A stretch of DNA of 64,000 nt from Acidobacteriota bacterium (GCA_029562975.1 JAKQTR010000043.1:72491-136490), one strand, 5' to 3'. Numbered from the stretch's first letter, positions 46,496-50,533 are shown. Program-made: numbers and translations. The notes: generated from the letters alone by a model not told the origin.

Positions 46496-47896
46496 TCACC
46501 GGCCCCCGCCCAGCCATGCCCTGAGCTCATCCAGGGCCGCCCGGACGGCTTCGGGATTGGTGGACTGGGGCGTCCGCTTGGCGGCCACCGACGCGGCGGC
46601 CGAGATGGCCCCGGCGACATCCGGCTCGAACCGGTCGCTGAAGGCCCGCCACTCGTCAGGGCCGAGCGAGGCGAAATCCCGGCCCTGCGCGGAGAGCGTC
46701 CTCACCATGCCGCCCACGATGGCGTGCGCGTCGCGGAACGCCACGCCGCGCGCCACGAGGTAGTCGGCGACGTCGGTCGCCAGCAGTAGCCCTGATGCGG
46801 CCCTCCCGGTCCGTTCCGCGTTCAGCTCCAGGCCGGCGACGACGGCCGCGCTCGCGTCGAGCGAGGCCGACACGGTGTCTTCGGCCTCGAACACGGCTTC
46901 CTTGTCCTCCTGCAGGTCCCGGTTGTACCCGCTCGGCAGCCCCTTCATCGTCGCCAGCCACCCGGCGAGGCGGCCGAGCACCCGGCCGGACTTGCCGCGG
47001 GCGAGCTCCAGAGGATCCGGGTTCTTCTTCTGCGGCATCAGGCTGCTGCCGGTGGCGAAGCGGTCTGGCAGGTCGAAGAACCCGAATTCCTCCGACGTGA
47101 AGAGGATCACGTCCTCGGCGAGGCGGCTGAGGTGCACCATGGCCACCGAGCACGCGAACAGGAAGGCGGCCGCGAAGTCGCGATCGGAGGACGCGTCGAG
47201 GCTGTTCGAGACGACGCGCGAGAAGCCCAGGCGCCTCGCCAGGAACGCCGTGTCGACGGCGCAAGTCGCGCCGGCGATGGCGCCGGATCCGAGGGGCATT
47301 TCGTCGGCCTCGTCGGCGGCCCGCTCGAACCGCCCGGCGTCGCGACGGAACGCTGCGGCGTGGGCGAGGAAGAAGTGCGCCGCCAGGATGGGCTGCGCTC
47401 GTCTGAGATGCGTGTAGGACGGCATGAGCGCGCCGCCGCACGCCTCGGCGCGCGACGCCAGCGCCCCGGCCAGCCGCTTCAGCCGTGCGACGATCCCGGG
47501 AATGCGGCGCTTGAGGTAGAGGCGCAGGTCGAGCGACACCTGCTCGTTGCGCGAGCGCCCGGTGTGCAGGCGCTTGCCTGCCTCGCCAATCCGCTCCACG
47601 AGCTGCCGCTCGACAAACGCGTGGATGTCCTCGTCCGGGCCGCTCACGAACGCCGCGTCGGCGCGGCCGGCGGCGAGTATGGCCTGCAGCCCCCCGGCCA
47701 TCGCATCCGCATCGCCCTGGCTGATGACCCCGGCGCGGGCGAGCGCCTCGGCCCAGGCCAGGCTGCCTTCCACGTCCTCCTCGAAGAGCCGCCGGTCGAA
47801 TGGCAGCGACACGCCGAAGGAAAACACGCCGGCGTCGGGCCCGCCGTCGAAGCGCCCCGACCAGAGGTGCGGCCCCGGGCGGCCCGCGCCGCTCAT
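46496..47896 (-). CDS. argH: Argininosuccinate lyase
   Basis: HTGRSRNEQV and the GSSLMPQKKNPD signature. ATG 47896 overlaps the argR stop (ATGA). Confidence 0.95.
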   Translation of the reverse strand: MSGAGRPGPHLWSGRFDGGPDAGVFSFGVSLPFDRRLFEEDVEGSLAWAEALARAGVISQGDADAMAGGLQAILAAGRADAAFVSGPDEDIHAFVERQLVERIGEAGKRLHTGRSRNEQVSLDLRLYLKRRIPGIVARLKRLAGALASRAEACGGALMPSYTHLRRAQPILAAHFFLAHAAAFRRDAGRFERAADEADEMPLGSGAIAGATCAVDTAFLARRLGFSRVVSNSLDASSDRDFAAAFLFACSVAMVHLSRLAEDVILFTSEEFGFFDLPDRFATGSSLMPQKKNPDPLELARGKSGRVLGRLAGWLATMKGLPSGYNRDLQEDKEAVFEAEDTVSASLDASAAVVAGLELNAERTGRAASGLLLATDVADYLVARGVAFRDAHAIVGGMVRTLSAQGRDFASLGPDEWRAFSDRFEPDVAGAISAAASVAAKRTPQSTNPEAVRAALDELRAWLGGGR

Positions 47897-48345
47897 GTCC
47901 TCGCCATCCTGTCGAAGCGGGCCGCGACCGACGCGGCGGCCGGCGCGTTGCGGCAGATCACTAGGACGGTGTCCTCGCCGCCAATCGTGCCGATCACGCC
48001 GGACATCCTGGCGGCGTCGACGGCGCTCGCGAGCGGCTGCGCCTGCGCGAGGCCGGTCTTCAGCACGACGAGCTGCCCTGAGCGCTCGAGGCCCGTCAGG
48101 TACTCGGCGATTGCGCGCCGCAGCCGCGACGTGGCGACGGCGGGGTCCGCGCTCTCGGTCCCGGGCCGGTGGTACGCACCGTCGCCGCTCGCCTTGACCA
48201 GGCCGAGATCGCGGATGTCGCGGGAGAGCGTGGCCTGGGTCACCGAGAACCCCAGCGCCTTGAGGCGCCGCCTGAGTCCTTCCTGGCTCGACAGCGGCAC
48301 GCGATCGACGAGATCGAGGATGGCGGCCTGCCTGCGCGTCTTCAT
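47893..48345 (-). CDS. argR: Arginine repressor ArgR
   Basis: SQEGLRRRLKALGFSVTQATLSRDIRDLGLVK (wHTH) and the C-terminal GTIGGEDTVLVI oligomerisation/arginine-binding motif. Confidence 0.9.
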   Translation of the reverse strand: MKTRRQAAILDLVDRVPLSSQEGLRRRLKALGFSVTQATLSRDIRDLGLVKASGDGAYHRPGTESADPAVATSRLRRAIAEYLTGLERSGQLVVLKTGLAQAQPLASAVDAARMSGVIGTIGGEDTVLVICRNAPAAASVAARFDRMART

Positions 48346-48356
48346 CGGGATGGGTC

Positions 48357-49490
48357 CTACCCCATGGCCCCTTCGGGGTAGTACAGCGCGAGGCGCAGCT
48401 CCTTGGCCAGCGCCTCCACGGAGGACCCCTTGCTCCACGCGCCCTGGGTCTCGAAGCGAAGGTCGCCGATGCGGTGGCCCCACGGCGCGATGACGCGGCC
48501 GATGGCCCTGAAGTCGGCGCGGTCGGCGTGCTCCTCGTCCAGCCGCCGCACGACCTCCGGCGACACGCGCAGGAAGGCGCGAAGGGCCGACGACGACTTG
48601 ATGCTGTACTTCCGCCCGTTCCACGCCGCGCCGAAGACCAGCGCGACCTGCTTGAAGTAGTTGACGAAGAAACGCGTGGCCTCGTCATGGAACTCGCGGG
48701 TCCGGCGCGGCCCGCCGAAGGCGTCGCCCTGGAAGAGACGCTTGAGCTCCTGCGCGAGCGGCGCCTGCGCCACGCTGCCATGGCCCACGCCGAGCAGCTT
48801 GATGTCCATGTGGAGCGGCGAGTCGTCGCGATCGTTCAGGGCCCGGACGATGTCGTGCGCGAGCGCGAGGTTGGCGTCCCGGTACAGCTGGCGGCCGGAC
48901 AGGCTTACCAGGTGCGACGAGTTCAGCCGCGTGTGCTTCGCGTTGATCGTCACGAACATCTGGACGATGTGGTCCTCGGGCAGCTGGTCGAAGATCACGG
49001 CCGGCACCGAGAACGCCTCCTCGCCGAACCGCTCGATGTCCGCGTGCATCGCGAGAAGGCGGTGCTGGCCGTCGATGGCCCGCAGGATGCCCTCGCGCTC
49101 GGGCACCTTCAGGACGCCCAGGCTCGAGCCTTCCTCGACGGGAGAGAAGCCGAGCTTCTCGTCGGACGAGATGATGACCGCGCCCGGGATCGAGGGCAGG
49201 TCGCGCGCCTGGCGGCACTGCTCGTAGTAGCCGACGAGCTCGTCGATCTTCCGGCGGATGATCTGCCGCTGGTACGCCTGCTCGCTGGCGGCGATCCGAC
49301 GCTCGAGCAGGTCCCAGTTCACCTTGGAGGCGACAGCGCCCCGCTTCTTCCCGCGCACGGGGGGCTGATGCGGCTGCCCGTAGCTCAGCACCTCGAAGCG
49401 CACGAGCCTGTCGATGTCCCTGGCGGTCAGCGAGGCCTGGTAGAACCGAACCCCGAATTGCTGCATCTGGATGGCGGACACGTTGATCAT
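48357..49490 (-). CDS. DGQHR-domain protein (DndB-like, ParB/Srx-fold superfamily), orphan
   Basis: A literal DGQHR motif occurs in LRAIDGQHRLLAMH. Its 377-aa length is typical of the DndB family. It ends 11 nt before the argR ATG on the same strand. Confidence 0.8.
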   Translation of the reverse strand: MINVSAIQMQQFGVRFYQASLTARDIDRLVRFEVLSYGQPHQPPVRGKKRGAVASKVNWDLLERRIAASEQAYQRQIIRRKIDELVGYYEQCRQARDLPSIPGAVIISSDEKLGFSPVEEGSSLGVLKVPEREGILRAIDGQHRLLAMHADIERFGEEAFSVPAVIFDQLPEDHIVQMFVTINAKHTRLNSSHLVSLSGRQLYRDANLALAHDIVRALNDRDDSPLHMDIKLLGVGHGSVAQAPLAQELKRLFQGDAFGGPRRTREFHDEATRFFVNYFKQVALVFGAAWNGRKYSIKSSSALRAFLRVSPEVVRRLDEEHADRADFRAIGRVIAPWGHRIGDLRFETQGAWSKGSSVEALAKELRLALYYPEGAMG

Positions 49491-49507
49491 GGCTGAATCC
49501 TGCGGTA

Positions 49508-49535
49508 TTCTTACCCGCTTTTTCGGGGATTTCAG
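49508..49535 (-). promoter_or_regulatory. Possible promoter of the DGQHR gene
   Basis: On the minus strand: CTGAAA (49530-49535), a 16-nt spacer, TAAGAA (49508-49513), in a locally AT-rich patch. AGGA lies 8 nt before the ATG. Confidence 0.25.
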
Positions 49536-49639: not shown

Positions 49640-50533
49640 CTAGGCTCGAGGCGGCGCTCCCTCGCGCTCCAGCGCGGCCCGGCATATCCGGAGCTCCCTC
49701 TTCCGGGCCGGGGAAAGCGTCGGAAACGCCAGGTCGAGGCCCTCCAGGGCCTCGACGATGGCCGACGCCACCACGATGCGGGCGAACCGCTTGCTGTCGG
49801 AGGGCACGACGATCCAGGGCGCGTGCAGGGTGGCGGTGTGCCGGATGGTGTCCTCGTAGGCCGCCATGTAGTCGTCCCAGCGCTCCCGCTCCTTCACGTC
49901 GGCCGCCGAGAACTTCCAGTTCTTCTCCGGCCGGGCAATCCGGTCGAGGAACCGCTCCTTCTGCTCCTCTTTCGACACGTGGAGGAAGAACTTGCGGATG
50001 AGGTAGCCGTTGCGCGCCAGGTAGCGCTCGAACGCGTTGATGTCCTCGAAGCGGTCGCGCCAGATGGTCTTCGTCCTGGCGGCTGCGGGGAGCTTCGCGC
50101 GGTCGAGGATCTCGGGATGCACGCGCACCACGAGGGTCTCCTCGTAGTAGGACCGGTTGAAGATGCCGATGCGGCCGCGCTCGGGCAGGGCCTTCGTCGT
50201 CCGCCACATGAAGTCGTGGTCGAGTTCCTCGGCCGACGGCGTCTTGAACGAGCAGACCTGGCATCCCTGCGGGTTGACGCCCGACATGACGTGGGCGATG
50301 ACGCTGTCCTTCCCGGCCGCGTCCATGCCCTGGAAGATCAGCAGGACGCCCCAGGTGTCCTGGGCGTAAAGCCTCTCCTGGAGCGCCGCGAGCCGCTCCA
50401 CTCCCTGCTCGAGGAGCTTGCGGGTGTCCTTCTTCGATTGCTTCCACGACCCGCTGCCGGTCGGATGGTCCTTCAGGGAGAACCGGCTGCCGTCGGTGAC
50501 GAGGAACGGGGCGACAAGGTCCTGAGGCTTCAT
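49640..50533 (-). CDS. ppk2: Polyphosphate kinase 2 (PPK2) family protein
   Basis: The Walker A-like GMDAAGKD plus FNRSYYEE and the lid region typical of single-domain PPK2. GGAGGA lies ahead of the ATG. Confidence 0.85.
   Translation of the reverse strand: MKPQDLVAPFLVTDGSRFSLKDHPTGSGSWKQSKKDTRKLLEQGVERLAALQERLYAQDTWGVLLIFQGMDAAGKDSVIAHVMSGVNPQGCQVCSFKTPSAEELDHDFMWRTTKALPERGRIGIFNRSYYEETLVVRVHPEILDRAKLPAAARTKTIWRDRFEDINAFERYLARNGYLIRKFFLHVSKEEQKERFLDRIARPEKNWKFSAADVKERERWDDYMAAYEDTIRHTATLHAPWIVVPSDSKRFARIVVASAIVEALEGLDLAFPTLSPARKRELRICRAALEREGAPPRA

Follow-up and report, generated by a model that had tools for sequence, protein, structure and literature searches.

The stretch of DNA analysed here, a 64-kb window from the genome of an Acidobacteriota bacterium, encodes on its minus strand a solitary protein of the DGQHR family, whose members include DndB. 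The 377-residue product of the open reading frame (ORF) at 48357..49490 (-) carries AIDGQHRLLAMH. A PPK2 gene lies 149 nucleotides (nt) upstream. The stop codon of the DGQHR gene (TAG, 48357-48359) is separated by 11 nt from the ATG of argR at 48345, and the argR stop codon (TGA) overlaps the ATG of argH (ATGA, 47893-47896). These spacings had been given in a preliminary description of the locus and were read off the sequence again with the same result. The window genome is a metagenome-assembled genome (MAG) of 3.76 Mb in 60 contigs with an estimated completeness of 97.65%, and the records of its relatives place it in the Vicinamibacterales, Acidobacteriota. The coordinates of the features discussed are collected in Table 1.

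Table 1. Features of the DGQHR locus in the window, and loci of other contigs and genomes referred to in the text.
Feature	Coordinates	Strand	Basis
Solitary DGQHR-domain (ParB/Srx-fold) protein, 377 aa, pI 9.3	48357..49490	-	Family models, AlphaFold2 model, fold matches, conservation
PPK2-family polyphosphate kinase	49640..50533	-	TIGR03709, 378 bits
Promoter-like CTGAAA-N16/17-TAAGAAT	49507..49535	-	Position homologous to the orthologue promoter (~45 upstream regions aligned)
11-nt spacer, junction of a 7.2-kb lineage-specific deletion	48346..48356	-	blastn colinearity with G005, junction sequences, contigs L147-L150
argR, arginine repressor, 150 aa; promoter region of relatives lost	47893..48345	-	Pfam Arg_repressor, Arg_repressor_C, NCBIfam
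argH, argininosuccinate lyase, 466 aa; start at the argG-deletion junction	46496..47896	-	Pfam Lyase_1, ASL_C2
ArgF-like and ArgD-like gene pair, window genome	C14:60150-64311		
Structured small RNA-like element, example outside the window	L072:7245-7363	+	
Structured small RNA-like element, example outside the window	L078:7157-7277	-	
Type I-G locus headed by a DGQHR gene	L133:7854-15539		
Type I-G locus headed by a DGQHR gene	L134:5207-18000		
Type I-G locus headed by a DGQHR gene	L135:7878-18434		
Type I-G locus headed by a DGQHR gene	L145:9001-18309		
Neighbourhood of a clade B gene, Nitrospira sp. KM1	L126:6549-10855		
Neighbourhood of a clade B gene, Thermoplasmata	L128:5999-11709		

Family membership, which had been proposed from the motif, was confirmed by profile search. 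The protein scored 118.3 bits against TIGR03187 (DGQHR, NCBIfam), for which the cut-off is 58.85 bits, and the match spanned residues 6-313 and profile positions 1-275 of 276. The DGQHR domain is defined by a QR pair, the DGQHR pentapeptide and an FxxxN motif (PMC4619093). All three are found in the window protein (Q74-R75, D140-R144 and F179-N183), and all three are invariant in an alignment of 55 sequences covering both deep clades of the family. The DGQHR domain occupies the N-terminal part of the chain, approximately residues 1-200, and is followed by a helical C-terminal half, approximately residues 200-377. An AlphaFold2 model built from a 55-sequence alignment (predicted local distance difference test, pLDDT, 79.7; predicted template modelling score, pTM, 0.72) shows an N-terminal domain of mixed alpha/beta structure, with helices making up the C-terminal half. 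When Foldseek was used to compare the model with BFVD, DndB-like, GmrSD_N and ParB/Srx proteins were matched with E-values from 7e-10 to 1e-3 and low TM-scores. On sequence grounds, the gene is an intact member of the DGQHR-domain branch of the ParB/sulfiredoxin (Srx)-fold superfamily.

By the same kind of evidence the product is neither DndB nor DpdB, because its scores fall far under the equivalog cut-offs, neither DndC nor DndD is found in the genome and there is a single gene of the tRNA-guanine transglycosylase (TGT) family. The score was 46.4 bits for the DpdB equivalog NF041060, where 300 are required, and 17.5 bits for the DndB equivalog TIGR03233, where 328 are required. PADLOC returned only weak matches to its DpdB and DndB models, with 47.4 bits for DpdB. 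The window protein has in common with DndB, the regulator of the dndBCDE operon for DNA phosphorothioation, the domain with its three motifs and a size of about 360-380 residues. However, the Pfam DndB model (PF14072; 49.4 bits against a cut-off of 29.1) matched the N-terminal half only and the C-terminal half is unrelated to it. Moreover, the window genome lacks the dndC and dndD partners, and the gene belongs to the vertically inherited core rather than to a mobile island. DpdB, the ATPase that accompanies the DpdA transglycosylase in the dpd system for 7-deazaguanine DNA modification, is the best-scoring specific subfamily (46-47 bits over most of the length) and has the same presumed nucleotide-binding motif, but the score is far below 300 and the window genome has no DpdA-like second TGT and no dpdC-K genes.

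The DGQHR motif occupies the site that holds the nucleotide-binding motif in the ParB/Srx fold (PMC4619093). A weak fold resemblance was seen to the CTP-dependent ParB/Noc/KorB DNA clamps and to GmrS/DUF262 NTPase domains (pNOB8 ParB-N and PadC in the PDB; GmrSD_N and ParB/Srx proteins in BFVD). Unlike the clamps, the window protein has no GERRxR box, no recognisable helix-turn-helix and no partition ATPase gene nearby, and it had no match to ParBc in Pfam even at E = 10; a PHROG family described as ParB-like matched 66 of its residues with 23.5 bits. The type IV restriction enzymes of the GmrSD/DUF262 family have a DGQQR motif and a C-terminal HNH (DUF1524) nuclease, whereas the window protein has DGQHR and no nuclease domain, and its GmrSD_N score of 14 bits is below the cut-off of 33.2, which places it outside that family. 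Sulfiredoxin-like repair of the nearby OsmC peroxiredoxin was also considered. The catalytic Cys of sulfiredoxin lies in the motif FGGCHR; at its position the window protein has Gln, and the distance to the OsmC gene is variable, so this role was rejected.

DndB and DpdB relatives act within DNA-modification systems, and a dnd or dpd system elsewhere in the genome could in principle use the gene in trans. The whole genome contains a single DGQHR gene. DndC (TIGR03183) and DndD (TIGR03185) had no match in the 97.65%-complete genome; DndE was not searched for. The one TGT-family gene of the genome is on another contig and scored 494 bits against PF01702, which is in the range of the housekeeping enzyme, and no second, DpdA-like TGT was found in the genome. 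Neither Cas1 nor the type I-G Cas7 (Cas_GSU0053) was present in the window genome. With no DndC, no DndD and one TGT, use in trans by such a system is unsupported. The DGQHR gene is an orphan, since nowhere in the genome does it have partners from DNA modification, restriction or CRISPR, and the absence of dnd and dpd partners, which had been reported for the window, holds by genome-wide search as well.

The distribution and rate of change of the gene were then compared across the order. A single-copy orthologue, 74-89% identical to the window protein, was found in 50 of 61 relatives (19 families). In a phylum-wide sample there was no DGQHR match in families f7, f10 and f18, closed genomes included, or in the sister order of the same class; one other family has homologues at 52-53% identity and scattered ones at 32-36% occur elsewhere. 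Identity to the window protein was 84-89% within the genus, 81-85% within the family and 74-81% within the order. The corresponding values in the same genomes were 88-93%, 84-89% and 76-87% for RecA and 79-84%, 68-79% and 60-70% for ArgH. In the most distant families the identity of the DGQHR protein equals that of RecA. The VWA, CyaY, proline racemase and OsmC proteins encoded by its syntenic neighbours, by comparison, reach only 42-66% in most loci outside the family. Among 81 orthologues, 187 of the 377 residues are invariant, and pairwise ratios of nonsynonymous to synonymous substitution rates (dN/dS) ranged from 0.10 to 0.23. The upstream order proline racemase-CyaY-VWA-(OsmC) is kept across the order. 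Most of the matching records are soil and groundwater metagenome bins.

From these comparisons of sequence, the gene is a vertically inherited, single-copy, syntenic core gene in most families of the Vicinamibacterales and not a mobile defence gene. By the same measures, purifying selection on the clade is strong, and its conservation comes close to that of RecA. This conservation is more striking than the arginine context on which the preliminary description had concentrated, and it was missed there. Its quantification is new, and so is the finding that the gene is decoupled both from a neighbouring small RNA and from CRISPR-Cas.

The gene had been described as hard-wired to arginine regulation, and its product as a possible DNA-binding co-regulator or sensor in an arginine operon. 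Several features of the locus favour such a partnership with ArgR. The three genes are contiguous, with an 11-nt gap followed by the ATGA overlap, the arrangement persists across lineages that have diverged by about 18% in DNA, and many relatives have arginine genes within 4-9 kb of the DGQHR gene (of 80 loci, 36 with argJ and 24 with argF). However, neither argR nor argH stands beside the orthologue in any of 31 loci from relatives, and argR is adjacent in none of 80 loci from other species, one of which has argR at a distance of 5 kb. The neighbour on the other side is variable as well: of the 80 loci, only 6 have PPK2, and 26 have OsmC, in the 6 kb upstream, and PPK2 is the syntenic upstream neighbour only in the genus of the window.

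The origin of the contact was apparent from the same family. In five genomes (G005, G003, G002, G019 and G014) the DGQHR gene is followed, after 7-9 kb, by argR in the same orientation. A blastn comparison of the window with G005, the closest species representative, was colinear save for two gaps in the window. The first, of 7.2 kb, contains in G005, as identified with Pfam, genes for a DUF2339 protein, argJ, a GNAT gene, argD and argB on the opposite strand, together with an AT-rich region upstream of argR; the second, of 1.1 kb, contains argG. The ORFs on both sides of the junctions are intact and the native upstream region of argR is gone. The argR start is found 11 nt behind the DGQHR stop because of the 7.2-kb deletion. 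The contact with argR-argH is, from this comparison, a derived state that arose when the ancestor of a sub-genus lineage deleted 7.2 kb and 1.1 kb, and this origin is a new finding.

An assembly artefact might give the same picture in a MAG of 60 contigs, and at 3.76 Mb the assembly is smaller than the genomes of its genus relatives (4.2-5.5 Mb). However, four contigs of the Joint Genome Institute (JGI; L147-L150), from four other metagenome samples, carry both junctions with cores that are base-for-base the same. These contigs share the order PPK2, DGQHR, 11-nt gap, argR, ATGA overlap, argH, a gene for a 253-residue protein, fabI, an HD-GYP/GGDEF gene and queC; over 5.8 kb their DNA identity to the window is about 81.5% (approximately 18% of bases differ), and they differ from it upstream by two extra genes. 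Given, in addition, the intact ORFs at the junctions and the loss of argJ and argB from the whole assembly and not just from the locus, an artefact is scarcely credible. The fusion is common to at least two species-level lineages; neither the remaining seven species representatives of the genus nor anything more distant has it. The adjacency is thus confined to a narrow lineage, as would be the case for a chance juxtaposition, but it is not unique to this genome, since four independent contigs share its junctions.

Transcription of argR-argH from the DGQHR gene is a separate matter from a functional link. Because the gap is 11 nt, no terminator-like site was found between the DGQHR gene and argH, and the native argR promoter region has been deleted, the three genes are, as read from the sequence, very probably co-transcribed in the window genome, in agreement with what was proposed earlier. 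The orthologues have a conserved TTGAGA-N17-TACAAT/TAGAAT promoter upstream (~45 loci aligned), and a promoter of the window gene is inferred from the homologous position only. With the native promoter region lost, argR-argH would depend on upstream transcription and would now be read from the promoter of the DGQHR gene, a promoter capture brought about by a deletion accident and implying no functional partnership. No E. coli-type ARG box with three or fewer mismatches was found in the 64-kb window, and control of the fused operon by ArgR is thus not indicated. In addition, genomes in which the gene stands alone conserve the protein just as well, argH is retained in families f7, f10 and f18, which have no DGQHR match, and the fusion arose through the loss of biosynthetic arg genes together with the argR promoter. 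The adjacency is almost certainly non-functional and derived by deletion, and a role as a partner of ArgR is very improbable. The claim of a co-regulator of the arginine genes is therefore not supported, and the gene is hard-wired to arginine regulation in no sense that extends beyond one sub-genus lineage.

In one orthologue subclade (L053, L056, L068-L072 and L076) an inverted repeat, ATCTATCTAAC-N13-GTTATATAGAT, lies just upstream of the -10 box, approximately 60-110 nt upstream of the DGQHR start, and is a candidate operator. The repeat is absent from the window and from other families and is not conserved across the order.

The deletions also bear on arginine synthesis in this lineage. 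From the ancestral arg supercluster, argJ, argB, argD, the GNAT gene and argG were lost, and argR and argH were kept. No ArgJ or ArgB homologue was found in the 97.65%-complete genome, in which a 26%-identical ArgG-like gene (contig C37) and a pair of ArgF-like and ArgD-like genes remain. The losses suggest either an alternative arginine route or auxotrophy with the regulator and the lyase retained. ArgH itself has gained an eight-residue N-terminal extension, MSGAGRPG (window 47872-47896), in comparison with MPHLWSGRF... in G005; the extension arose at the argG deletion junction and is present in a diverged form in contig L147. The 3.76-Mb genome is smaller than those of the reasonably complete genus relatives (4.2-5.5 Mb), and in the tree the terminal branch of the window protein is longer than those around it. 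The small genome and the long branch fit a lineage that is losing genes, of which the two arg deletions would be examples.

A structured RNA was found next to the gene in relatives of the window genome. In most Vicinamibacterales outside f1, the family of the window genome, a small RNA (sRNA)-like element of about 120 nt lies beside the DGQHR gene, and nhmmer identified 76 such loci. A promoter-like TTGC box and a terminator accompany its two helices, an outer one of 8 bp and an ACGGC/GCCGU hairpin, and one strand, GCUGGGGGAGCC, is conserved. RNAalifold predicted 23 base pairs, 13 of them with compensatory changes, and Rfam has no family for the element. Its orientation to the gene varies; it is usually located 100-350 nt downstream and elsewhere about 2.7 kb off, beyond rfb genes. 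As positive controls, the best genome-wide matches of a covariance model adjoined the DGQHR gene in G046, G029, G025 and G055. With the same model, no sRNA was found in the window genome, in five other f1 genomes or, when filters were off, in the window itself. Furthermore, the gene occurs in G037 without the RNA, and in G038, which had no DGQHR match, the RNA is present as two tandem copies. Strict dependence on the sRNA was rejected, since the RNA was not found in the window genome or its f1 relatives and the positive controls worked. As far as the sequences tell, the gene and the sRNA are old neighbours without mutual dependence, and the RNA has no role in the window.

These results bear on an RNA-linked function more generally, whether through the adjoining structured RNA or through tRNA modification. 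The position of the element beside the gene in most loci outside f1 and its 13 compensatory pairs speak for such a function, and conservation at the level of RecA would suit a partner as conserved as an RNA. In addition, QueG and ThiI flank a Nitrospira homologue, and queC/queD lie 6 kb away in the window. However, the element is missing from the window genome and five other f1 genomes, its orientation is not fixed, and gene and RNA occur without each other in G037 and G038. The neighbours related to tRNA modification are not conserved over the 80 loci, and the link through QueG/ThiI or queC/queD was rejected on this ground. An RNA-linked function is considered rather unlikely.

The wider family was surveyed among 1.84 billion cluster representatives, of which 863 were relatives at E < 0.001. 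A maximum-likelihood tree of 48 sequences contains two deep clades, A and B. Three groups form an unresolved trichotomy in clade A: the orthologues of the Vicinamibacterales, which have very short branches (support 97/94), the Myxococcota proteins (support 100/100) and a small set from Acidobacteriota at 52-56% identity. The members of clade B are solitary, have about 370 residues and come from Nitrospirota (including W02_33800 of Nitrospira sp. KM1), Thermoplasmatota and other Acidobacteriota. Their contexts are of a housekeeping kind and are not conserved, and the distant Acidobacteriota homologues share no conserved neighbours. Clade B proteins of Thermoplasmatota archaea and Nitrospirota bacteria are approximately 50% identical. 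Genes seen next to them include QueG and ThiI, an RNase Z-like metallo-beta-lactamase and an XPD-type helicase (L126 and L128 in Table 1); these tRNA-related neighbours may be a coincidence, as they are not conserved between phyla.

In the Myxococcota, the DGQHR gene heads a type I-G CRISPR-Cas operon in four of five contexts, and in the fifth the contig ends too soon. The order is DGQHR, an overlapping ORF, Cas3, the large subunit (cas8u) and Cas_GSU0053 (cas7), with Cas4-Cas1 and Cas2 where the locus is complete. A WYL regulator is nearby in three of the four loci, and none is annotated in P0500. The overlapping ORF encodes 158-201 residues in three loci and 672 residues in L145 and belongs to no Pfam family. 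In the 158-201-residue form, the N-terminal helix and a C-terminal domain of about 55 residues are conserved, and there is an acidic linker of low complexity. No tblastn match to this partner was found in the window genome. A full-text literature search found no paper on solitary DGQHR proteins or on DGQHR proteins in CRISPR loci.

The Myxococcota proteins are the closest relatives of the window protein outside the Acidobacteriota, with 43-46% full-length identity and the same two-domain length. In contrast to the window gene, they head a cas operon and have evolved several-fold faster, as judged by branch lengths; both the cas genes and the partner ORF are lacking in the window genome. The tree joins the Myxococcota and Vicinamibacterales proteins in one well-supported clade. 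This grouping, the place of the Myxococcota genes at the head of type I-G operons and the weak PADLOC matches to DpdB and DndB speak for a stand-alone or trans-acting defence component, either a nucleotide-dependent phage sensor or nuclease or a stray part of a dnd, dpd or type I-G CRISPR system. This is contradicted by a genome without Cas1, type I-G Cas7, DndC, DndD or an extra TGT, and by the missing homologue of the Myxococcota partner protein. Moreover, among the 61 relatives the type I-G Cas7 (11 genomes) and the DGQHR gene (50 genomes) do not correlate, and both sampled f10 genomes have Cas7 and no DGQHR match. Single copy, synteny, RecA-like conservation and short branches are the opposite of what is typical for defence genes, and a role in defence is unlikely.

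Taken together, the observations are probably best explained by a nucleotide triphosphate (NTP)-dependent, nucleic-acid-binding housekeeping factor that came into contact with the arg genes by deletion. By analogy with its relatives DpdB, GmrS/DUF262 and ParB, the DGQHR pocket would bind and hydrolyse NTP, and the NTP cycle would control binding of nucleic acid by the basic protein (pI 9.3). The most likely role would be that of a chromosomal DNA-binding regulator or a nucleoid-associated switch with a housekeeping function. DndB binds its own promoter and autoregulates the dnd operon as a repressor (PMC4507180); the sites it recognises are palindromes. A DNA-binding regulatory role would fit the window protein because DndB, the sole characterised regulator of the domain family, represses its own operon. 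As a molecular mechanism, an NTP switch that gates nucleic-acid binding in a chromosomal regulator or nucleoid-associated protein is put forward tentatively, its chances being a little short of even.

A number of results weigh against this proposal. NTP binding and DNA binding are drawn from family resemblance only. The C-terminal half matched no Pfam family at E = 10 and thus offers no recognisable DNA-binding domain. A Foldseek search of the PDB gave nothing below E = 0.1, with weak matches to ParB-N and PadC at E 0.16-0.36, and a sequence search of the PDB gave a chance 14-bit match alone. A consensus promoter scan of the window called no promoter upstream of the DGQHR gene, the candidate in Table 1 being below threshold. 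Finally, conservation at the level of RecA is unusual for a transcription factor and could point to a conserved machine or an RNA as partner. A broader formulation is possible, and is held more tentatively still: a ParB/Srx-fold NTP switch, constrained like RecA and sharing ancestry with the type I-G accessory protein, may act on the chromosome or on a conserved RNA or protein machine, distinct from modification and defence, its promoter having been co-opted for argR-argH in the window lineage.

The arginine link has little general meaning, and it is probably a clean case of promoter capture after the loss of biosynthetic genes. Proteins of the DGQHR/DndB type are usually treated as parts of DNA-modification or defence systems; the Vicinamibacterales clade has instead the behaviour of an essential housekeeping gene. 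Its function would extend the known uses of the ParB/Srx nucleotide switch and could explain an unannotated CRISPR-associated gene.

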